Positions 4,522 to 64,000 of a DNA stretch of 64,000 nt are shown here, piece after piece. The DNA comes from an uncultured Clostridia bacterium (GTDB lineage: Bacteria; Bacillota; Clostridia; Oscillospirales; CAG-272): the NCBI GenBank assembly GCA_944391815.1, contig CALXUV010000028.1:44240-108239 (forward strand). The letters run 5' to 3'. Within the stretch, counting starts at the first letter, position 1. Each line of letters opens with the position of its first letter. Under the pieces are notes generated by a model. It did not search any database and was not told the DNA's origin. It saw only the letters and a list, made by a program, of their open reading frames with translations. Position numbers and translations under genes: made by a program.

Positions 4522-4550
4522 TTGACAATAATCCGCTGTTATGATATTAT
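4522..4550 (+). promoter_or_regulatory. sigma-70-like promoter (TTGACA-17-TATTAT)
   Basis: ttgacaataatccgctgttatgatattat. Confidence 0.4.
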
Positions 4551-4566
4551 GTAGGGGTTATAAGAA

Positions 4567-5640
4567 ATGAAAGGCATTCATGATATGAAATATCTTTTTT
4601 TTGACATAGAATGTGCTAACTGCGAGGGCGGAAACGGAAAAATCTGCAGTTTCGGATACGTAAAAACAGACGAAAAGTTTCGTGTTCTTGAAAACCGTGA
4701 CATAATTATCAACCCAAGGTCTGAATTCAGACTTCAAAACTTTTCGTCAAAAAAATATATTGAGCTTGCCTATCCCGAATCGGAATTTCTGTCAGCTGAA
4801 GATTTCAGGGAACATTACCCGGAAATAAAGGATATTCTGAAAGAAGAGGAACTTCTGATATTCGGTTACGCCGTTGAAAACGATGCAGGTTTTTTGAGGT
4901 CGGAGTTTGAGAGATACAGACTTGAATGTGTTAATTTCCGCTTCTACGATGTTCAGAGACTCTACTGTAAAAGCGTAGGCAAACCGCTTACGCAGATGTG
5001 TTCACTTTCCGATGCCTGTTTTGAGGCAGGGATAGAAACGAGCTGTGTATGTCATAAGAGCAGTGATGATGCTTTTCTGACGATGAAACTTCTTGAAAAA
5101 ATCACAGAGGTCAAGGGAAAGAGCGTGCCGGAACTTCTCGGTGAAACCGACAGAATCAGCGGAACTCTTGAAAACGGGGAAATATACGCCGAATACTTTA
5201 AAAACAGGAATTTTATCAAGCCCGGAGAAGAAAATTTAATAAGGGGAAAAAACAAAGACGATTATAAAAATTTTCTGAGAAGGCTGGCGCTGCGAAGCTA
5301 TAAGCAAAAAGCTACTTTTTCCGGAATTTACGAACACAGACATTTCAAAGAAATGGTTGTTCTTGTCAGTATGCTTGCCGAGAGAGGGATAGGGTATACG
5401 GACAAGGCGTCAGATGCCGACATATATATAAGGAAGCCGCAGAATGCTCCCGGGATATGCTCAAAAGAAGAATATGTAAAAGAGCTCAATCTCCGCAAAA
5501 ATGCCACAAGAAAAATAGAAATAATGTGGTTTGGCAGCATGCTGAGGACACTCGGACTTACTCCCGCGCTGCTAAAAGAAAAAGCCGAGGATTACGAAAG
5601 GATATTAACGGAAGTAAAAAATGAAACACTGCCTGTCTGA
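4567..5640 (+). CDS. DEDDh-type 3'-5' exonuclease domain protein (DnaQ-like)
   Basis: Exo motifs FFDIE (I), GYAVENDAGF (II), HKSSDDAFLTMKLL (III, H-x4-D). Confidence 0.7.
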   Translation: MKGIHDMKYLFFDIECANCEGGNGKICSFGYVKTDEKFRVLENRDIIINPRSEFRLQNFSSKKYIELAYPESEFLSAEDFREHYPEIKDILKEEELLIFGYAVENDAGFLRSEFERYRLECVNFRFYDVQRLYCKSVGKPLTQMCSLSDACFEAGIETSCVCHKSSDDAFLTMKLLEKITEVKGKSVPELLGETDRISGTLENGEIYAEYFKNRNFIKPGEENLIRGKNKDDYKNFLRRLALRSYKQKATFSGIYEHRHFKEMVVLVSMLAERGIGYTDKASDADIYIRKPQNAPGICSKEEYVKELNLRKNATRKIEIMWFGSMLRTLGLTPALLKEKAEDYERILTEVKNETLPV

Positions 5641-8744: not shown

Positions 8745-9030
8745 TTAAAAATCAAATTTCTGACTGCGATTATGTGTAAGTACCGGATTCAGTAAACTTG
8801 TCAGAGACGGAAAATCATCGGCTGAAAGTTTTCCGAAGGTCTGTTCCCGGGAATTTCAGCATATGAGTCTCCGCCGGAAAGCGTTACGCATAAGACGGAT
8901 GTAACCGCTGCATTAAAGCGGAAAAAGAGCAAAGATCTCTGTCTTTGAAATAGGGTGGTACCGCGGATGTTTTCCGTCCCTTTTCGGCAGGGGTTATTTT
9001 TTTATTCTTCGCAGATAAGCGAGAAAGGAA
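8745..9030 (+). promoter_or_regulatory. T-box leader upstream of pheS-pheT
   Basis: Canonical T-box AGGGTGGTACCGCGG at 8952-8966 followed by hairpin and TTATTTTTTTATT. Confidence 0.75.
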
Positions 9031-39253: not shown

Positions 39254-39567
39254 CCCGACAAGTTTAGGAATATGTATTTTTCTGAAAAATAAAAGCAGAA
39301 ATCAAACCGAGCAAAAATACAGTTCCGAGAGAAAAAAATCATAAAATTCCTTTCCGAGGAACAAAAAAGCCAATGTCCCCCTGCAACAAAAAATGCAGAA
39401 GTCATCAGCTTAAAAAGCGGTTCCGGTTACACACCGAGGGAGAACTTCATTCCCTGTATTCAGTTAAGTGTTACTAATAATATATAGCGTCCAAAGTTAA
39501 GTCTTAAAATCTGTTAAAATCCACTTACGGCGTTATTGTAGCACAGAAACCGTAATTTGTCAATAAC

Positions 39568-55217: not shown

Positions 55218-55309
55218 TCACAATCGCGGTTTTATTCACGTAAATGTTTAAGAAACCGACAGCTACCAAACTTTTAACATTAAGCTTTTCAGGTGAACGG
55301 AGATATGAT

Positions 55310-58300
55310 ATGAAAAAATTTCTGATACTGACTTTTACTATTATTCTTATCGTTACCCTTTCATTTATGGTTGTATCCTGCAATAACAATGATGACGAAA
55401 ATATTTACAATGAAAATGAAGGAAACGATTCATCGGATAAACCCGGTGAAAACAACGGGACCGATCCTAATGAAGCCCCCAATGACTGGGAAAACGATCA
55501 AGCCGGAAATGATTCCGGTGAAGGAAATCAGAACGAAGGCGATGCTTCCGGAAATGAACAAAATCCCGGAAGCGAGCAAAACCCCGGCGATGAAGAAGGC
55601 GATGGCAATCACGGAAGCTCTGAGGTTGATGAAGGAACACCGGATGGTGATCAGGAAAAAATTGATGCAGACGACTTGAAAAATGTAAGCTTTACCGGAA
55701 AAACAGTTGAATACACCGGAATGCCGCAGAGTATTGTGGTAAACACTACGCTGTTGCCTGAAGGAGTCAGTGTAACTTACCAAGGTAACGGAAGAACAAA
55801 TGCCGGAGTTTATACTGTCAGAGCCAAATTCTACTTTAAAGGTGAATATATCTCCGGGGCAGACAAAACCGCTGTTTTAAAAATCAATAAGGCGACTCTC
55901 AAACTGCCTCCTGAAGCTTTTTCAGATGCGATTTTCGATTTTGACGGACAGAATCATAGTATCACAATTGATGAAACCTTAATTAAACAAGGCTTTACAG
56001 TCAGCTATGAGGGAAATAATGTATATAGCATAGGAAAACACATTGTTAAAGCTGTTTTTAAAGTCAAAGATCCAGCAAATTACGAAGTTCCCGCACCTAT
56101 TACCGCAATTTTGACAATTAACCCCGGAAATTACGCTACTGAGGACCTGATTTATCAACTTAACGGCAATTCCTATGAAATTGTGGGTTATACCGGAAGT
56201 GACAAATCGGTCATAATCCCCTCTACATACGACGGTAAACCTGTAACATCTATAGCTTCGGAAGCATTCAAAGATAATAGATATATAACGTATGTTTATC
56301 TGCCGGAAACTGTAACCAATATCGGCAACAATGCCTTTAAAAATTGCTATTCTCTTGAAATATTTAATTTTGCAAAAGTACAGGTGATTGGACAGAACGC
56401 ATTTGAAAATACAAATATCAAAAAAATATCTTTGCCGGATACACTTATTTCCATCGGAAAAAGTGCTTTCAGAAACGTAAATGTCGTAAGTTTCACGCTA
56501 CCGTTTATCGGCGGCAGCGCAGACTCGTCCAACAGATATCTTGGTTTCATTTTCGGTGCGCCAAGTCATATCGCAAACTCCACTTATGTACCGTCAACAC
56601 TTGGCAGCGTCACGTTGTCTGATGCATGCGGTGAAATAGCCCCTAATGCATTTTACGGTTGCAGCAGTATCAGTGAGATCATTATTGGTGAAAACATTTC
56701 AAAAATAGGAAACGGCGCTTTTTACAAATGCACAGGGCTTAGATACATTTACCTTCCTTCATCTGTAACAAATATCCCGGCAAATGTAGCTTATATTAAT
56801 TCACCGTTCAACGGTTGTTCTGAAAAACTTTTTGTGGTTCTCGAAGGTGATATACCGGATGGATATAACAGTTATTGGAATTATATTTCCGAGTCCGAAA
56901 AGGCTTTGATTATAAAAAACGAAAGTTTTAACGACTATCTTACCAATAGAGATTCTTACGAGGATGAAGATATGAGTGAGACGGGACTTGAGGCAATTTA
57001 TCTTAACGGTGTTGCTCTGAGCGGTTTCAGCACTGCAAAACTCAACTACACCTCAGTTATGGATATTAATACGGGATATGGAACGTTAACCTATAAAACC
57101 CTCTCTCGTGTAGCTGCGGTAGAAATAACAGAAACAGAGAAAACTTTATCGTCAGTAACTGTTCGTATCAAAGTAACCGGAGGAGATCGCATCAGCGTAA
57201 CGGAATATTACATAACATTCAATGTTTCCGGCACACTCAACTCTTCAGGAAACGAAATCGTCAATAAAAACGGAACAGATGCTACCGTAACATATGTCAT
57301 AGATGACGGTGATCAGAAAACCGGTTCATTTGCCGCCGAAATGCTCGGAAAATACAGTTACCTCAATCTGAGTTTTGCTATTCCGACCAAAAATTTTGTT
57401 ACATTCAATACTGAGGAGACAGATAACGGCAAATTGCAGTACGTAATGGATGGCGACAGATATACATACACTGTCAAAAACGATGCAGTTACTTTCTGGA
57501 AAAATATACTCGACAATGCTGACGGCAGGGCTGAGATCGTCAATCATACCGATTCGCACGCATACTGGGGTCAGAATGACGACGGGGGAACGTTTACATA
57601 CGTAGACAACAACAACAACATAAAAACCGCAACGATGCCTATCGGAAGCAGTACAAAGGAAATGTACGGCGCCAATCAGGTAATTGAAGAGCTTTTTCCC
57701 AGTTACCTTTACCCCTCGATGAGCACCACAACATTCATTAATGCCGGAATAGGGGTGAAAATGGGAACTGTTACCATTGACGGAATAGTTTATCCATCAT
57801 ATTATGCTTTCTTCAAAAATGTTATAAATAAGGCTTATGCAGACGGTGAGATACTCGGAATGCGGTCAACTTTTATAGTACAGGATACTACTGGTTCAGC
57901 AAGCAAAGTCATACTTCCCGAAAATTTCAAAACAGCTGATCAGCGTCTGAATATTCCGGCGTTTATGGTTAAAGACGGACCGGGAGACAATTCCGGTAAC
58001 GGAATTGAAAACTGGACAGCTTATATTGATCACGCTATTGATCAGAATGGTTGGGCTTGCTTCTGTATTCACAACATTAGGGATGATCAGACAACGGGGC
58101 ATTACATCACAACTGCAAATGCAGACGCTCTTTTTGGATACACGGAAGATAAAAATGTATGGGTTGCCTCGATAAATGACGCTACGAAATATTATAGAGA
58201 ATGGTCAACTGCAAAACTCTCGACTGTATACCAAGGAGAAACAATCAAAGTCACACTCACAGACGGCGAAGACAACGAAATATGCGATATGGCTTTGACT

Positions 58301-58450
58301 GTGAAGATCTATACACCGGTGACGTGGGATAAGGCTATGTATAACGACACTGTGATTGATGTACATGAGGAATCAAACGGAAGACGTTATGTCCTTGTGG
58401 ATATCATTCCGGACAGCGGTGTGACTGAAATTACAGGTATTTGTGGTTAA
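55310..58450 (+). CDS. secreted protein: acidic low-complexity region, BspA-type leucine-rich repeats, C-terminal CE4 (NodB) polysaccharide deacetylase-like domain
   Basis: Signal MKKFLILTFTIILIVTLSFMVVSC; LRR units IGNNAFKNCYSLEIFNF...; CE4 motifs YVIDDGD and NHTDSHAYW. Confidence 0.75.
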   Translation: MKKFLILTFTIILIVTLSFMVVSCNNNDDENIYNENEGNDSSDKPGENNGTDPNEAPNDWENDQAGNDSGEGNQNEGDASGNEQNPGSEQNPGDEEGDGNHGSSEVDEGTPDGDQEKIDADDLKNVSFTGKTVEYTGMPQSIVVNTTLLPEGVSVTYQGNGRTNAGVYTVRAKFYFKGEYISGADKTAVLKINKATLKLPPEAFSDAIFDFDGQNHSITIDETLIKQGFTVSYEGNNVYSIGKHIVKAVFKVKDPANYEVPAPITAILTINPGNYATEDLIYQLNGNSYEIVGYTGSDKSVIIPSTYDGKPVTSIASEAFKDNRYITYVYLPETVTNIGNNAFKNCYSLEIFNFAKVQVIGQNAFENTNIKKISLPDTLISIGKSAFRNVNVVSFTLPFIGGSADSSNRYLGFIFGAPSHIANSTYVPSTLGSVTLSDACGEIAPNAFYGCSSISEIIIGENISKIGNGAFYKCTGLRYIYLPSSVTNIPANVAYINSPFNGCSEKLFVVLEGDIPDGYNSYWNYISESEKALIIKNESFNDYLTNRDSYEDEDMSETGLEAIYLNGVALSGFSTAKLNYTSVMDINTGYGTLTYKTLSRVAAVEITETEKTLSSVTVRIKVTGGDRISVTEYYITFNVSGTLNSSGNEIVNKNGTDATVTYVIDDGDQKTGSFAAEMLGKYSYLNLSFAIPTKNFVTFNTEETDNGKLQYVMDGDRYTYTVKNDAVTFWKNILDNADGRAEIVNHTDSHAYWGQNDDGGTFTYVDNNNNIKTATMPIGSSTKEMYGANQVIEELFPSYLYPSMSTTTFINAGIGVKMGTVTIDGIVYPSYYAFFKNVINKAYADGEILGMRSTFIVQDTTGSASKVILPENFKTADQRLNIPAFMVKDGPGDNSGNGIENWTAYIDHAIDQNGWACFCIHNIRDDQTTGHYITTANADALFGYTEDKNVWVASINDATKYYREWSTAKLSTVYQGETIKVTLTDGEDNEICDMALTVKIYTPVTWDKAMYNDTVIDVHEESNGRRYVLVDIIPDSGVTEITGICG

Positions 58451-58501
58451 TAATTTAGGACAGAGAACTGATATATAATAAATAAAATCCATATAATCAA
58501 A

Positions 58502-58552
58502 ACGGTCATTAACAAAAGCAAACTCAGCATTTGTTAATGACCGTCTTTTTTG
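58502..58552 (+). terminator. rho-independent terminator (15-bp stem)
   Basis: acggtcattaacaaa...tttgttaatgaccgt CTTTTTTG. Confidence 0.75.
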
Positions 58553-59349
58553 TCTTATAAAAAAGAAAATATTATGACAATAAAAATGGTGTATGGCACG
58601 AATGTGCAAAGAGCGTTCCGCCGGTCAGAAGGAGTTGAACGTCCCTTGAAGTGAGTTGTGAGATAATTAATCTGCAATTTTTCCGCATTTTCATTTCAGG
58701 CGATCTGTAATGAAGGTTTATAATCGCTAAAATTAATGCGATTTTGATTATAACACGATAAAATTTGCTCGGATGTAGTGATATGTTAGTTCACTGAGCA
58801 TAACTTTTTCGATGCGAGCTTTGCAGTTATCAGGAAAAAGTTCGGATTATTTGAATTTGGTATACCATGGTAATAGTTTTTTTATGACAATTGAAAAATG
58901 TGGTCAATGACTTTGAAAACAGGGAAAATAGCCCTGTTTTAATGGCTTTTTATTTTAACCATCCGTTGTTTTGTAACTATTAATCATACTGTTGTCATCT
59001 GCTAAAATTGCCTTTCCGCACTATTTCGTAATAATACTTGATTTTTGACATATTTTGTATTAAAATAAATATGTATTATTGAATCTATCAGGATTACAAA
59101 GAAATACAATAATTGAATCAAATTCCTTAACGTTGGACTTTAAGCTTAAAGATACATCCTGAAATTTTTTTGAGCATTCGTTGCAGCTGACGGTATCTGA
59201 CACGCATATCACATGATGAGTTTCATTAGATTTCGATGATTCCGCCCAACGCATCAATACATTTTTCAATTCCTTGTAAACTGAGCTTTGAGGCAACAAA
59301 GGAAAAGCATAAAAACAGAATTAAACAAAACTTACAGAAAGGAGTGTGA

Positions 59350-60609
59350 ATGATGTCCTCATATAGCGAGCTTATTAAGAACTTTGAAAAAATCAGAGCA
59401 TATATGCGCGATTTCTACGTTTATGGTTTCAAGAGTCGTGACGACTTTAAGTCCAAAAGTGCGCGTTCTTATGATGACGAGCGCCGACGTATTGAAAGCT
59501 GGCTTGGCGATAATATGAGTTTTGTTCGCACCCCGGAAGGTAAAAACGTTTTTATTTCCATTGACAGCCGAACTATACGGCACAATCCGCTTTACAAAGC
59601 TTGGAAAGCAAAGAGCTTTACCGACGGTGATATCACATTGCATTTCATTATCTTTGACATTCTTCATGATCCGGCTGTTAAACGCACTGTTTCTGAGTTG
59701 CTCGCAGAGATCGATGAGAAATATCTGTCAGACTTTGAAAGCCCTATGATGTTCGACGAATCTACCGTTCGCAAAAAGCTTAGGGAATACTGCGAAGCCG
59801 GAATTATCGTGGCAGAAAAAGAAGGACGAAAGGCATATTATCGCAGAGCTGATTCCACCGATATTTCCGACCTTAACGATGTTCTTCATTATTTTTCGGA
59901 GGTTGCTCCTTGCGGTGTGATCGGATCGTTTATACTCGATAAAGAGGAATCAGACACAGATTCGTTTACCTTTAAGCATCATTACATAACCTGTGCAATC
60001 GACAGCGGTGTTCTGGCAGCCTTATTTACAGCTATGCGGGAAAAGCGGGCGGTGACAATATCCAATATGAGCCGCCTTAAAGACTTGCCAAGACTAAATC
60101 GAATTGTCCCGCTTCGCGTGTTCATAAGCGTACAAAGCGGCAGACAGCATTTATTAGCGTATCTTCCTGAATACAATTCATTCCATTCCTACCGTGTGGA
60201 TTACTTATCAAACGTAAAGTTAGAAGAACCGACTCCTCGCTTTGACGAACTTCGCGCGGAGCTTGACAGAATGCAAGGCAAGATGTGGGGAGTGAGCGTC
60301 AAACGTAATAAATGGGGCGTAGACCACCTTGAACACGTGGAATTTACCGTCAAAGTGAAAGACAATGAGGAATATATCGTGGGGCGCCTTGAACGCGAAA
60401 AAAGAGTCGGAACGGTCGAAAAACTTGACGATAATACATATCGTTTTTCTGCAGATGTTTACGATTCAAGCGAGATGATACCTTGGATAAGAACATTTAT
60501 CTGCCGTATAGTAAAAATGAACTTTTCCAATCGCAGTGTAGGGAACAGATTCAAAAAGGATTTGGAAGTTATGTATCGGATGTACAATGTAGAGGAGGTG
60601 AGCGAATGA
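59350..60609 (+). CDS. WYL-domain protein A (N-terminal extra domain, wHTH, WYL, C-terminal extension)
   Basis: wHTH-like STVRKKLREYCEAGIIVAEKEGRKAYY; WYL core GRQHLLAYLPEYNSFHSYRVDYL. Confidence 0.6.
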   Translation: MMSSYSELIKNFEKIRAYMRDFYVYGFKSRDDFKSKSARSYDDERRRIESWLGDNMSFVRTPEGKNVFISIDSRTIRHNPLYKAWKAKSFTDGDITLHFIIFDILHDPAVKRTVSELLAEIDEKYLSDFESPMMFDESTVRKKLREYCEAGIIVAEKEGRKAYYRRADSTDISDLNDVLHYFSEVAPCGVIGSFILDKEESDTDSFTFKHHYITCAIDSGVLAALFTAMREKRAVTISNMSRLKDLPRLNRIVPLRVFISVQSGRQHLLAYLPEYNSFHSYRVDYLSNVKLEEPTPRFDELRAELDRMQGKMWGVSVKRNKWGVDHLEHVEFTVKVKDNEEYIVGRLEREKRVGTVEKLDDNTYRFSADVYDSSEMIPWIRTFICRIVKMNFSNRSVGNRFKKDLEVMYRMYNVEEVSE

Positions 60610-61517
60610 TATTCAGAGAGCTTTACTCCGCATATTACAATACGGTTGCCGCTATTATTTCGAGCATCATTGACGGTGAGCACTCTGAAAAGGAACTGCA
60701 AAAAATAGTAGCTGACCGTGCATTCGGTGAGAGTGTGTTGGTGATCCTACCTTCACTCAAAACTGAGAAATGGCAGCTTGTGCATCCCGATATGACCACC
60801 TCACTTGAACACAAGCCAACTATGCCGCTGACCACTCTTCAAAAGCAGTGGCTGAAAGCGATTTCGCTTGATCCGCGCGTAAAATTATTTGGTGTGAAAT
60901 TTCCCGATCTTGAGGAAGCAGAACCTCTTTTCACCTCTGCGGATTATCACGTTTGCGATAAATACGGTGACGGAGATCCGTTTGAGGATGAAGAATACAT
61001 AAGACATTTTCGAATCATTTTAGAGGCTATACGGAAAGGTTCTCAGATCAAGTTCGAAATGGTCAACCGTAAGGGCAACATGATGTTCGTGAGATGTCGT
61101 CCCGTGCGACTTGAGTACTCGGAAAAAGACGATAAGTTCAGAGTGATCACAGCGGGATGTCGTGCTGTTTCAACTGTTAACCTTGCCAATATAAGATTCT
61201 GTGCGCATTATACCGGAGAAAGACAGTCGGTTGGAGAGGAAAAAGCGGTAATATACGACACTGTCACCGTGAAGATTCGCGACGAGCGAAACGCAATGGA
61301 GCGATTCATGCTCCATTTTGCCCATTTTGAAAAGCAAGCCGAAAAACTTGACAGAAAAAATTATTTCGTGAAAATTAAATATGCGCACGATGATGAATCA
61401 GAAATGGTGATAAGGATCCTTTCATTCGGACCGATGGTAGAGGTTACCGGATCAGAGTCCTTCAAAAAATTAATCATCGAAAAGCTGAAAGAACAGTTAA
61501 ACTACGGATTAAAATAG
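60606..61517 (+). CDS. WYL-like domain protein B, translationally coupled to A (ATGA overlap)
   Basis: DDKFRVITAGCRAVSTVNLANIRF core; no obvious HTH. Confidence 0.45.
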   Translation: MIFRELYSAYYNTVAAIISSIIDGEHSEKELQKIVADRAFGESVLVILPSLKTEKWQLVHPDMTTSLEHKPTMPLTTLQKQWLKAISLDPRVKLFGVKFPDLEEAEPLFTSADYHVCDKYGDGDPFEDEEYIRHFRIILEAIRKGSQIKFEMVNRKGNMMFVRCRPVRLEYSEKDDKFRVITAGCRAVSTVNLANIRFCAHYTGERQSVGEEKAVIYDTVTVKIRDERNAMERFMLHFAHFEKQAEKLDRKNYFVKIKYAHDDESEMVIRILSFGPMVEVTGSESFKKLIIEKLKEQLNYGLK

Positions 61518-61520
61518 CAA

Positions 61521-61548
61521 AAAGCTCTCATTTGAGGGCTTTTTTATT
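61521..61548 (+). terminator. rho-independent terminator after WYL pair
   Basis: agctctc attt gagggct TTTTTTATT. Confidence 0.6.
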
Positions 61549-61694
61549 GTTTTCGCAGATTTTTTTCCGTGAAAAAAAGTGAATTGAATGGTAAAATATG
61601 CTTGCAAGGTTACTTCAAGCGAGTGTTTGAGTCAATCCTTCACAGCGGTGCACGAGGATATTCCAAAGTGTATGCCGGAAGAACTTTTGCACTT

Positions 61695-61742
61695 TGAGCC
61701 TTTCAAGCTCGTTATTCGCGGGTTCAAATCCCGCCGTATGCA
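61695..61742 (+). ncRNA. tRNA-Glu(UUC)-like 3' half: anticodon arm, variable loop, T arm, acceptor 3' strand; no 5' half
   Basis: tgagc CTTTCAA gctcg / ttattc / gcggg TTCAAAT cccgc / cgtatgc a. Confidence 0.45.
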
Positions 61743-62004
61743 ATTACAGCATATCGCCGGTGGTATGGATTTGTCCTTCGGGACGCAAAAAACGGTACCC
61801 GGAAGCATGCTTTCGGGTGCGAGAACGTTTTTATTCTGACATCAGTTATCATTCGGCAAAGAGAGAAATGCGTCTGCAGATTTCTCGGCGCAATGCAAAA
61901 GCAAGCCCTGCCTGTTGATGGATACCGTGCTATCCAAATTGGTGCCAAAAGGAATCTTTCCGCACCATGCCGGAAACACTTAAATCTTCAGCCGCTGCTT
62001 TTGC

Positions 62005-62670
62005 ATGAGTGATAACGGGATCAAACCAATTATGATTGGAGTGATAATAATGCTTTTCTTCTTCAAATCAAAAAGAAATCAACTGTTATCAAAGCTTATA
62101 AAAGCATTTCCAAAAGAATATAGATCAGATGTTGAAGCAGTTTGCAATACCTTGACACTAAAAAGCAAGGCATACAGTGGCGCATTGTATAGTGATGAAA
62201 CAACCGAATGGAGCTTACTCTCGGGTGAGAAAATAGAGATTCCATATCGTGTTTATTTAAGTGACAAATTGATTTTTCAAAACAAACTTACGGCGCAGCA
62301 ACAAGTGATCTACCATTGCATTTTTTCAAGAAGCTATGATGGATACGTCCGTCAAAAGCATATAGAAGCTTTGCTTGATTCTGATACGCCGGAATGGGCA
62401 ATGCCGTATATCGTAAAGATTTGCGACGAATATGTAAAAGAAATTTTGGATACTGTCTATCAAAAATTGAAAGCAAGAAATTGTGAAAGATATAAAGCGC
62501 TTTGCCAGCTGAATTTTGATTATTTCAAATTAGGTCATTGCCGCATGATCAGCTATTGGAATGAATATTACCGATACGATTGTTACAAATACAAAGAGTA
62601 TCTCGGAAAAAAACTTTACGGCGAGTGCTTTGGTTATAATAAGACCGGACAAAAATCTATTCAATTCTGA
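62005..62670 (+). CDS. Cys-rich protein with N-terminal membrane anchor, unknown function
   Basis: MIGVIIMLFFF anchor; 9 Cys in C-half. Confidence 0.45.
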   Translation: MSDNGIKPIMIGVIIMLFFFKSKRNQLLSKLIKAFPKEYRSDVEAVCNTLTLKSKAYSGALYSDETTEWSLLSGEKIEIPYRVYLSDKLIFQNKLTAQQQVIYHCIFSRSYDGYVRQKHIEALLDSDTPEWAMPYIVKICDEYVKEILDTVYQKLKARNCERYKALCQLNFDYFKLGHCRMISYWNEYYRYDCYKYKEYLGKKLYGECFGYNKTGQKSIQF

Positions 62671-62687
62671 AGAAAGGTTTACATACT

Positions 62688-63791
62688 ATGAAAAAAATGA
62701 TTATCAATGAAAATCAGAAGGGTTTTCTCTTCAAAAACGGAAAGTATATCAAATTGCTCGACGCGGGCAAATATCACCTGTTTGGAGGCAGGGATATTGA
62801 GATTTCCAATCTGGAACAGCCTATCGTGTGCAGCAAGTGCTCTCTTGAAACCTTGCTTGCAGACAAAGCAGTTGTCGATCAAGTTGCAGTCGTTGAAGTA
62901 GGCGACGAGGAGCTTGCTCTCCACTATGTAAACGGTAAGTTTTCAGATGTTCTTCCTCAAGGAAAATACGCTTTCTGGTCTACTTTGTACCAGCACGAAT
63001 TTAAAATCGTGGACATTTCAACTCCCACAGTTGACGAATCCATTCCCGAGTACATTTTCTCCAAGATTTCTCAGCTTTACTACATCAAAATCGAGGTTGC
63101 AGAATATCAGAAAGCAAGACTCTATTTTGGTCAAAAGCTTGAGCGGATTTTGGATGCGGGCACCTACTATTTCTGGAAAACATCTACGAAGGTAGACGTA
63201 AGCTTTGTTGACACCCGTTTGACACAAATGGATATCACGGGTCAGGAGATCCTTACAGCGGATAAGGTTTCTCTTCGTATAAACTTTGTCTGCAACTACC
63301 GTGTGACCGACTATGTCAAGATTCTGACTGAGATCGACGATTTCGCAGAGCAAATGCACGTGGCGGCACAGCTTGCCCTGCGCGAATATGTCGGTAAATA
63401 CAAGTTAGATGAAATCCTTGAAAACAAGGCACAAATGTCCGAGTTTATATTCGCCAAGCTGAAGTCAAAAGAAAAGGAGCTGTTCGTAGAAATCACTGAT
63501 GCCGGCGTCAAGGATATCATCCTGCCCGGCGAAATCCGCGAGATAATGAATACCGTTCTTGTCGCAGAAAAGCGTGCACAGGCAAACGTTATTACCCGTC
63601 GTGAAGAGGTTGCATCCACACGCTCCTTGCTGAATACAGCAAAGCTGATGGATGAAAACCAAACCCTTTACACGCTCAAAGAGCTGGAATACGTTGAGCG
63701 CATTTGCGAGAACGTAGGCAACATCTCCTTGAACGGTAACGGCAACATTCTGGGTCAGCTAACAACAATCTTAAACGGTAACAACGCCTAA
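62688..63791 (+). CDS. SPFH/band-7 (stomatin/HflC-like) protein without TM segment, N-terminal triple (L)DAGxYxFW repeat
   Basis: Band-7 core DITGQEILTADKVSLRINFVCNYRV ... ILPGEIREIMNTVLVAEKRAQANVI. Confidence 0.8.
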   Translation: MKKMIINENQKGFLFKNGKYIKLLDAGKYHLFGGRDIEISNLEQPIVCSKCSLETLLADKAVVDQVAVVEVGDEELALHYVNGKFSDVLPQGKYAFWSTLYQHEFKIVDISTPTVDESIPEYIFSKISQLYYIKIEVAEYQKARLYFGQKLERILDAGTYYFWKTSTKVDVSFVDTRLTQMDITGQEILTADKVSLRINFVCNYRVTDYVKILTEIDDFAEQMHVAAQLALREYVGKYKLDEILENKAQMSEFIFAKLKSKEKELFVEITDAGVKDIILPGEIREIMNTVLVAEKRAQANVITRREEVASTRSLLNTAKLMDENQTLYTLKELEYVERICENVGNISLNGNGNILGQLTTILNGNNA

Positions 63792-63799
63792 GTCCTTCA

Positions 63800-63849
63800 T
63801 GCGGTCGGGCGCGTTGTAACCATATAACTACAATTTATGCCCGACCGCA
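63800..63849. promoter_or_regulatory. 11-bp perfect inverted repeat with nested 5-bp IR, 20 nt upstream of rtcB RBS
   Basis: tgcggtcgggc ...28 nt... gcccgaccgca; no T-run. Confidence 0.4.
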
Positions 63850-63869: not shown

Positions 63870-64000
63870 ATGATAGAGATTATAGGAACTTTTAACACCG
63901 CAAAGTGCTTCGCCTCGACCCTTGAGGACGGTGCGCGTGAGCAGATCAAGGCGGTATGCGATACCGAGGCGTTCGCGTCCTCGAAGATAAGAATTATGCC
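63870..64000 (+). CDS. rtcB: RtcB-family RNA 3'-phosphate ligase, N-terminal 43 codons (runs off window)
   Basis: MIEIIGTFNTAKCFASTLEDGAREQIKAVCDTEAFASSKIRIMP matches the Firmicutes RtcB start ending in the IRIMPD(x)H metal motif. Confidence 0.7.
   Translation, partial: MIEIIGTFNTAKCFASTLEDGAREQIKAVCDTEAFASSKIRIM

Follow-up and report, generated by a model that had tools for sequence, protein, structure and literature searches.

A predicted multi-domain RNA with a circularly permuted tRNA mimic, associated with slipin genes in RtcB operons of Clostridia

Introduction

What is a tRNA-like segment doing in front of the genes for a slipin, a protein of the SPFH (Band-7) family, and the RNA ligase RtcB? 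The question is raised by a stretch of 64,000 nucleotides (nt), called the window below, from an uncultured Clostridia bacterium of the CAG-272 lineage of the Oscillospirales (GenBank assembly GCA_944391815.1, contig CALXUV010000028.1, positions 44,240 to 108,239 of the forward strand). A preliminary description of this DNA had flagged 290 nt (61560-61850 of the window) in which the 3' half of a tRNA-Glu appeared to be embedded among hairpins. Two readings had been offered, namely (a) the scar of an attachment (att) site left by an integrase and (b) a noncoding RNA of roughly 240 nt that uses a tRNA-like module. Which RNAs bacterial RtcB naturally acts on, and what its scaffold partners (Ro60 with Y RNA, or Band-7 proteins) contribute, is poorly understood, which lends the locus its interest. 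The comparative analysis presented here predicts that positions 61604-62013 of the plus strand encode a structured RNA with several domains and a length of about 410 nt, of which the flagged segment is only a part. All coordinates below refer to the window and, unless stated otherwise, to its plus strand.

Conservation and covariation

Homologous loci were collected by two routes. An alignment of p206, the 206-amino-acid protein encoded directly downstream of the RNA, was used to gather 80 genomic loci, and a metagenome scan with the pattern of a 20-nt box that precedes the RNA added 120 more, giving 200 loci combined. Nearly all of the 120 box-containing stretches lie beside a pair of genes for WYL-domain regulators and/or rtcB. 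A search for homologues of the SPFH protein yielded close relatives alone; distant slipin operons came from plasmid and Escherichia coli collections. In at least 16 of the 80 loci the region 61545-62049 is conserved throughout at the nucleotide level (nhmmer E-values of 1e-17 to 1e-109). Alignment A3 was built from 31 distinct full-length RNA sequences taken from both locus sets. The RNA was also found in a named species, Subdoligranulum variabile (L203, from record OY725857.1), where it occupies about 4550-4970 of the locus.

RNAalifold analyses of alignments A2 and A3 returned 58-66 base pairs, 42-44 of them with compensatory changes. The final model comprises 78 pairs in 14 helices and combines the RNAalifold result with elements added by eye (helices P1, Pa, Px and Po, the outer pairs of the acceptor-like stem and the D-like hairpin). 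When applied to A3, 88.6 % of the cells in this model were standard-paired, against 36.6-45.4 % when the partners were slid by one to three columns, and the covariation score was 0.46 as compared to 0.09-0.13 for the slid partners. Both sides had changed in 61 of the 78 pairs, so that the covariation check on homologous intergenic regions proposed in the preliminary description gave a strong signal. None of 500 shuffles matched any of the observed measures. For 61604-62003, the minimum free energy (MFE) corresponds to a z-score of -3.7. That the plus strand is the RNA strand can be told from invariant U-G and G-U pairs. The GC content of the RNA region is 0.48, versus 0.34-0.44 in the neighbouring blocks, and, as had been noted before, its open reading frames (ORFs) are all short and overlapping.

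The circularly permuted tRNA mimic

The middle of the RNA, between a 5' domain and a 3' rod, is predicted to be a circularly permuted tRNA mimic. Its elements follow each other in the order anticodon-like hairpin, variable linker, T arm, closed acceptor stem and D-like hairpin with a GG-containing loop, which corresponds to a tRNA opened at about position 26. The anticodon-arm-like hairpin TGAGC-CTTTCAA-GCTCG (61695-61711) carries the 7-nt loop CUUUCAA, which fits the pattern YU-NNN-R-N. It is followed by the 6-nt linker UUAUUC (61712-61717), which has the length of a tRNA variable loop and measures 5-9 nt in the homologues. The T arm GCGGG-UUCAAAU-CCCGC (61718-61734) has a canonical T loop, is paired to 96.8 % and shows compensatory changes in four of its five pairs. 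The acceptor-like stem (61735-61756) consists of 7 bp with a bulged U and is closed by a 7-nt loop; six of its seven pairs are compensatory, and the homologues have stems of 7-8 bp with wholly different sequences in which pairing is retained. The D-arm-like hairpin CCG-GUGGUA-UGG (61757-61768) has compensatory changes in all three pairs. In the homologues it reads CCR-GYGGUU-YGG with a loop of 6-8 nt, and the GG is present in every variant.

Much of this had been recognized before. The anticodon arm, the 6-nt variable region, the T arm and CGTATGC+A at 61735-61742 are all there, as are the hairpins cgtatgc/gcata(t)cg, GTCC-TTCG-GGAC and ACCCGG...CGGGT (within 61791-61829) and the T run at 61828-61833. 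A functional tRNA gene had rightly been doubted, since ARAGORN detected none in the 64-kb window. A 5' acceptor strand and a D arm had been declared missing, which is true of the upstream side, but both exist downstream of the T arm. CGTATGC pairs with GCATA(T)CG on its downstream side, so that the acceptor stem forms a closed hairpin; what had been taken for the first of several further, separate hairpins is this very stem. The reading as a noncoding RNA with a tRNA-like module before the SPFH-rtcB genes was correct as to kind; the RNA is longer than had been assumed, the module is complete but permuted, and the link is with the slipin.

The mimic is variable among homologues. In 13 of the 31 sequences the anticodon-like hairpin precedes the T stem at a distance of 5-9 nt; in the others it is absent or replaced. 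Its central triplet varies (GTC, TAC, GTT, TTT, TTC or TAT), and covariation is seen in three of the four pairs of its stem. An optional insert in 10 of the 31 sequences contains a second T-arm-like hairpin, GGGG-UUCAACU-CCCC; a tRNA-Leu that ARAGORN reported in the RNA of locus L005 is a product of this insert and was rejected as a real tRNA gene. The elements of L063 are ordered D-anticodon-T. The divergent slipin locus L098 keeps helix P2 and the 3' rod and is devoid of the T arm, the acceptor hairpin and the D-like hairpin. In its positions 4586-5034 (box-forward, the reverse complement of the stored sequence), GGATACCG...CTGAAG...GGCCGC can be read, with other hairpins in place of the tRNA module. 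On this comparison, P2 and the 3' rod appear to be the invariant core of the family and the tRNA mimic a frequent but exchangeable module.

The 5' domain and the 3' rod

The 5' domain (61604-61690) is formed by P1, which encloses Pa and P2. P1 is a long-range helix between GCAAG (61604-61608) and TTTGC (61686-61690) that is 94.7 % paired, with four of five pairs compensatory. Inside it lie the hairpin Pa (GTG, 61623-61625, with CAC, 61641-61643) and P2 (61647-61676), in which GGUGCAC faces GUGU-AU-GCC under the cap GGA-UAU-UCC. P2 is paired to 100 %; at its pair 106-123, 16 sequences have GC and 15 have AU. Two long-range pairings found in a crude helix scan, GCGGUG of the 5' domain with UACCGU of the 3' domain and UUUUGC with GCAAAA, were rejected because their mismatches are uncompensated in L010, L006, L018, L011 and L019 and because the competing helices P2 and P1 have compensatory support.

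Downstream of the mimic, the hairpin Px (GUCC-UUCG-GGAC, 61773-61784) is 88 % paired and has three compensatory pairs out of four. MFE folds place a further hairpin, Py (AACGGUACCCGG...CGGGUGCGAGAACGUU, 61791-61829), in front of a U run, the two together spanning 61791-61833. While most homologues have a hairpin at the position of Py, the U run (61828-61833) occurs in about 9 of the 31, mostly close relatives, and for that reason is not regarded as a conserved terminator. The possibility that Py and the U run separate two RNAs was rejected accordingly.

The 3' rod domain (61848-62013) measures about 165 nt and comprises Po, Ph and P10-P14; 37 of the 41 pairs in helices 9-14 are compensatory. 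Po, the outer helix, joins AUCAUU (61848-61853) to AGUGAU (62008-62013) and is followed by the hairpin Ph (61854-61891) and by P10 (61893-61902 with 61997-62006), with P11-P14 lying inside the rod. Conserved internal loops are GGAUACCG (61920-61927), GCCAAAAG...CUUUCCGC (61944-61963), CUNAA (around 61979-61983) and CAGCCGC (61989-61995). Between the 3' domain and the start codon of the next gene, neither a conserved terminator nor a conserved helix sequestering the ribosome-binding site (RBS) was seen in the 31 sequences. An alternative pairing of AUCAUU with an AGUGAU that overlaps the RBS was rejected, as it was seen in the window and its nearest relatives alone.

Linkage of the RNA to the slipin gene

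The proteins of the window (by tblastn) and the two halves of the RNA (by nhmmer) were mapped on the 200 loci, and the RNA was located only where a slipin gene follows. The count was made on the 93 box sites for which 1.7 kb or more of downstream sequence was available: slipin and RNA are both present at 29 and both absent at 64, and at none is one found without the other. About 35 loci from different species have the element in the same place, with the WYL gene pair on one side and the slipin/RtcB genes on the other. The association persists where p206 is missing (RNA-slipin-RtcB) and where the order is RNA-slipin-p206-RtcB (L051, L063). Conversely, loci with the same box and rtcB that do not carry a slipin gene do not carry the RNA (L012-L017, L081, L090 and others). 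Two covariance models were used, R1 for the T arm, acceptor stem, D-like hairpin and Px, with the T arm as its core, and R2 for the 3' rod, which scores 106.7 bits at 61893-62008. R2 matched every Clostridia slipin locus searched and nothing else, and neither model gave a significant match in loci of Bacilli and other taxa that have p206 only. The decisive link of the RNA is with the slipin (SPFH) gene and not with rtcB as such. That a selected, structured RNA tied to the slipin is encoded here can be stated with high confidence.

In several box-regulated operons without the RNA, a 155-amino-acid protein lacking a family match replaces or joins the slipin before rtcB (L013, 6065-6532; also L012, L014, L016, L017, L019 and L020). 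The box was encountered in only three viral contigs, and the RNA in none of them.

The slipin gene of the window (62688-63791) encodes a soluble protein with a Band_7 domain (Pfam, E = 1.7e-29) and an N-terminal beta-rich module. Its AlphaFold2 (AF2) model has a mean predicted local distance difference test (pLDDT) score of 78, with values above 90 across the N-terminal beta-rich 120 residues; modelled alone, the N-terminal module reached a pLDDT of 34. The closest structural matches of the model are stomatin, HflK/C, prohibitin, erlin and QmcA, which form rings or cages, and the major vault protein is a more distant, much weaker match. One slipin homologue, P0121 (638 amino acids), has three copies of the beta-rich module of about 133 residues before the SPFH domain, a layout resembling the repeat-shoulder of the major vault protein. 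A repressor of Anabaena PCC 7120, TrcR, controls both rtcB and an operon with a slipin-family gene (alr0739-alr0740) in connection with translational stress (PMC10272220), which is an independent hint that slipins and RtcB act jointly.

Promoter, regulators and neighbouring genes

Two regulator genes precede the RNA. WYL1 (59350-60609) encodes a protein with a winged helix-turn-helix and a WYL domain (Pfam WYL, E = 3e-6) and is adjoined by WYL2 (about 60606-61517); the pair precedes the box in most loci. A terminator scan revealed an intrinsic terminator of WYL2, an 11-bp stem with a T run at 61519-61544, from which it follows that the RNA belongs to a separate transcription unit. The 20-nt box TTCGCAGATTTTTTTCCGTG (61552-61571) overlaps the -35 position and occurs once in the window. 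It heads the locus alignment, where it is written TTCGCAGCTTTTTTTCCGTG, and is nearly invariant in all aligned loci. At a fixed distance from it stands the -10 element TGnTAnnnT, of which TAnnnT is kept in the 31 homologues. In the window this is the extended -10 TGgTAAAAT (61589-61597), detected by a promoter scan. The promoter-like GTGAAA/TAAAAT of the preliminary description is thus present, with a spacing of 17, the extended TG and its end at 61597. Transcription is predicted to start near 61604, 7 nt after the -10 element, and 61604 is the first base of P1, where a start would be expected.

The box is mostly situated between WYL1-WYL2 and the RtcB operon and is sometimes found before WYL1 as well or in a divergent arrangement. 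It is the presumed operator of the WYL1/WYL2 pair. In more than 100 metagenome and genome contigs the box, in the form TTCGCAGNTTTTTTTCCGTG, takes the place of the promoter -35 region ahead of RtcB operons, 3' of an adjacent pair of WYL-domain regulator genes and sometimes also 5' of the pair. This arrangement suggests an operator for a WYL activator of two subunits that is possibly a functional analogue of RtcR.

About 35 nt separate the 3' end of the RNA from the RBS of p206, the first gene after it (62038-62670 including the RBS). The true start of p206 is placed at 62050, because homologues cover 93 % of the ORF. The protein has no Pfam, NCBIfam or Protein Data Bank (PDB) match, and PDB sequence searches with WYL1, WYL2 and p206 gave nothing informative. 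Members of the p206 family (about 206 amino acids; alignment A1) have invariant H, C, R, K and E residues, as in IYHCIFSRSxDGYVRQKHIEALL, and are spread widely across Bacilli and Clostridia, mostly outside RtcB operons. The translation of 63870-64000 is the start of rtcB, which is cut by the end of the window; the full-length orthologues present in homologous loci are recognized by Pfam as RtcB. A 10-bp GC-rich hairpin, GCGGTCGGGC...GCCCGACCGC, with a 28-nt loop (63801-63848) stands between the slipin stop and the rtcB start. Upstream of WYL1 lies an AT-rich spacer of about 900 nt (58450-59350; GC 0.30-0.34) that holds no copy of the box, and before it a gene for a 1068-amino-acid BspA-type leucine-rich-repeat surface protein (55244-58450).

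Comparison with known RNA families

At gathering thresholds, a scan of the whole window against Rfam 15 returned no match in the RNA region. E-value scans of this region and of the L203 RNA produced only terminator-like noise, placed around 61519-61544, and a match of the T loop to tmRNA, which makes the T arm the sole Rfam-matched element. Identity as tmRNA or as any other Rfam 15 family was rejected on the strength of both scans. A canonical tRNA gene was rejected as well, given the silence of ARAGORN and the acceptor partner strand that lies downstream and closes the stem as a hairpin. Elsewhere in the window, Rfam gathering-level matches were obtained for a T-box leader (8757-8984, plus strand, 93.5 bits) and a fluoride riboswitch (39389-39463, minus strand, 49.2 bits). 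With T-box leaders the slipin RNA shares being a long structured 5' leader in Firmicutes that has to do with tRNA. T-boxes, unlike the slipin RNA, bind tRNA and do not mimic it, and their terminator/antiterminator switch is absent here; the Rfam T-box model found no match in the RNA region.

A closer parallel is the bacterial Y RNA YrlA, the tRNA-like domain of which is a circularly permuted tRNA with the order V-T-AS-D and a closed acceptor (Chen et al. 2014, PMC4201824; Wang et al. 2018, 10.1101/312249). The slipin RNA has the same succession of variable region, T arm, closed acceptor and D hairpin at 61695-61768, with covarying helices and with T- and D-loop nucleotides that would be able to form a tRNA elbow, and it too is encoded in an RtcB repair operon. 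The differences are considerable. Neither the Ro motif nor a nearby Rsr/TROVE gene was found in the window. A regular-expression search for the Ro-binding motif GNCGAAN0-1G gave no match in the window RNA and scattered chance matches at non-equivalent positions in 3 of the 31 homologues. By tblastn, no TROVE-like DUF2828 protein was found in the window, which ends inside rtcB. Two slipin loci only (L004, L030) have an Rsr/TROVE-like gene, in both cases as a separate cassette. There is no terminal 5'-3' helix around the tRNA module, the D-like loop is shorter (6-8 nt), and the slipin RNA is about three to four times longer than YrlA.

An RNA of this general kind has been predicted before. The b7a-tRNA, a Band-7-associated tRNA-like noncoding RNA located beside RtcB, is an unvalidated prediction of Burroughs and Aravind (2016) as cited by Wang et al. 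(2018, 10.1101/312249), who word it as "strongly resembling an authentic tRNA". The comparison is with that description only, as Rfam contains no family for b7a-tRNA. The slipin RNA agrees with it in carrying a tRNA-like module and lying beside genes for a Band-7/SPFH protein and RtcB. Of the parts of a tRNA it has a T arm, an anticodon-like arm, a 7-bp acceptor-like stem and a hairpin with a GG loop, in a permuted order that ARAGORN does not recognize. Unlike b7a-tRNA as described, it measures about 410 nt, has a permuted tRNA module and no ARAGORN call, and possesses additional P1/P2 and 3'-rod domains that are retained where the tRNA module is lost (L098). Finally, the eukaryotic vault RNA and major vault protein are comparable by analogy only; for the slipin, a closed cage and RNA binding are conjectural.

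Sister cassettes and the enterobacterial leader

At 33 of the 64 slipin-less box sites (33 of all 93), the box is followed by a gene for a DUF2828/DUF7788 protein, which is probably a TROVE-like protein with a vWA domain. Between the box and this gene, cloverleaf tRNA-like RNAs are found (L089 and others) that are called by ARAGORN and have odd anticodon loops, and the cassette continues with RtcB and an RlaP nucleotidyltransferase. In L089 (51-3321) the box precedes one or two such RNAs, called tRNA-Met(cat) or undetermined, with the acceptor GGCACCA/TGGTGCC. Cassettes of the L089 type are also present in L115, L140, L143, L166, L178, L196 and L110. The box-to-rtcB interval of L081 (4740-4900) holds repeated stem-loops with the motif AAGGCACNGACAGCAG...CAGTGCCTTG, like the stems flanking the tRNA-like RNAs of L089; these may be small Y-RNA-like RNAs. 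The sister cassettes and the slipin RNA match a "syntax" of scaffold (Ro/TROVE or Band-7), cognate RNA and RNA ligase that is attributed to Burroughs and Aravind (2016) in 10.1101/312249.

In Enterobacteria an RtcR/sigma-54 promoter is followed by a conserved leader of about 300 nt and then by the genes for a same-subfamily slipin and for RlaP. The leader was delimited at 4680-5000 of L201 (E. coli STEC639) and at 4680-4995 of L202 (Citrobacter freundii); its elements include a T arm, TGGGTTCGATTCCCA, as well as a closed hairpin and a loop with GG. Like the RNA of the window, it lies right in front of a slipin gene (33 % identity, with 93 % of the protein covered) and has the order T arm, closed hairpin, GG. 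It differs in its promoter, sigma-54/RtcR-dependent instead of the WYL box, and sequence similarity is limited to the T-arm region. Model R1 matched it weakly (19 bits, E = 0.012 in E. coli L201; 13 bits, E = 0.5 in Citrobacter), and with R2 no counterpart of the 3' rod was found in the leader. The rtcR-slipin-RlaP locus occurs in 1629 of 5426 complete E. coli genomes (about 30 %), and no RNA is annotated there.

Possible function

In our judgement the slipin RNA, which is classed on sequence grounds as a large slipin-associated RNA of several domains that includes a permuted tRNA mimic, is on balance probably the cognate partner of the soluble slipin, acting as a ribonucleoprotein (RNP) scaffold or cofactor in repair by RtcB. 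It would be transcribed from the box promoter as the 5' part of the p206-slipin-rtcB transcript and be released from this leader by processing. The released RNA could then bind an oligomeric slipin scaffold through P2 and the 3' rod, while its tRNA-like elbow might recruit tRNA-recognizing factors or position damaged tRNA or rRNA for RtcB. A role for a Band-7 protein with a tRNA-like molecule, by analogy with Ro60 and Y RNA, was proposed by Burroughs and Aravind (2016), according to 10.1101/312249. Several points weigh against such a partnership. The RNA, its release and its binding to the slipin are deduced here from sequence, and the loop GG is a candidate T-loop partner in an elbow contact on the same grounds. 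The absence of the tRNA module from L098 implies that tRNA mimicry is not indispensable. Ahead of the first ORF the RNA lacks a terminator of its own, and it might serve as a 5' untranslated region (UTR) alone. The loci are phylogenetically related as well, so that co-occurrence with the slipin could partly reflect inheritance as one cassette, although the rearranged gene orders argue against this. A more far-reaching version of the partnership, in which an as yet undescribed class of large (about 400 nt), intricately folded bacterial noncoding RNAs docks through P2 and the 3' rod on a soluble, cage-forming slipin, offers the exchangeable tRNA mimic as bait or handle and makes up a vault- or Ro-like repair particle with RtcB, with the WYL regulators sensing RNA damage, is speculative and rather unlikely to hold in full.

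The most plausible of the rival explanations, though an unlikely one, takes its cue from the 5' UTR position. The RNA would be a cis-acting regulatory leader, comparable to a riboswitch or T-box, that senses a signal, for instance tRNA in a damaged or uncharged state, fragments of tRNA or a small molecule, and accordingly tunes transcription or translation of the slipin operon, with no action in trans. Large conserved multi-helix leaders typify riboswitches and T-boxes, no terminator sets the RNA apart from the first ORF, the U run behind Py could attenuate transcription in close relatives, and AUCAUU could pair with the RBS-overlapping AGUGAU in the window and its nearest relatives. Against this, the U run is limited to about 9 of the 31 homologues and the RBS-overlapping AGUGAU to the closest relatives, a conserved expression platform after the 3' domain is absent from the 31 sequences, and no Rfam riboswitch or leader family matches. 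The linkage data point the same way: the same promoter and regulators run RtcB operons that do without the RNA, and the RNA tracks the slipin even with a gene in between. These two facts, together with the lack of a conserved terminator or RBS-sequestering helix after the RNA, speak against a generic leader and for a partner of the slipin. Less plausible still is a decoy or sentinel, the anticodon-like loop of which would be cut by ribotoxins (anticodon nucleases) and resealed by RtcB, so that real tRNAs are protected or the fragments signal damage. The loop does fit the anticodon-loop pattern YU-NNN-RN, its triplets GUC, GUU, UUU, UUC and UAC include anticodons targeted by known anticodon nucleases, and the RNA lies in an RtcB repair operon. 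YrlA has moreover been suggested as a possible competitive inhibitor of an anticodon nuclease (Hughes et al. 2020, PMC7790460), but the nuclease studied there did not cleave the YrlA of Salmonella. More than half of the homologues have no anticodon-like hairpin, the whole tRNA module is gone from L098, and both the invariant P2 and 3' rod and the exclusive slipin link would be left unexplained, all of which makes a decoy improbable.

At the bottom of the order stands the att-site reading of the preliminary description, which sees in the element an attL/attR scar (a duplicated tRNA 3' end) or a tRNA pseudogene decaying after an integrase insertion. It drew on the resemblance of the stretch from T arm to acceptor to a tRNA 3' half and on the somewhat AT-rich DNA to its left. 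The 64-kb window contains neither a tRNA nor a second copy of the 25-mer. Across about 35 loci from different species the element keeps its place between the same genes, and the acceptor-like stem has its own partner strand, which closes it. All helices are kept by compensatory changes and the flanking 300 nt covary too; covarying stems around a varying anticodon indicate a selected RNA structure and not a scar. We therefore regard this reading as extremely improbable.

Concluding remarks

The locus gives the predicted Band-7-associated RNA a concrete model, with boundaries, about 14 covarying helices, a permuted mimic and a core that is not tRNA-like, none of which is represented in Rfam. To our knowledge, large structured bacterial RNAs are rare, and those that were studied have repeatedly revealed new biology. 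The class was foreshadowed by the prediction of 2016; as a real, sizeable and unannotated class it makes the question of what Band-7 proteins and RtcB do together experimentally tractable. Related unannotated RNAs appear to be widespread, as the leader before the slipin gene in about 30 % of the complete E. coli genomes indicates. The model also provides a testable RNP hypothesis, in which a soluble SPFH protein would have an RNA as its partner.

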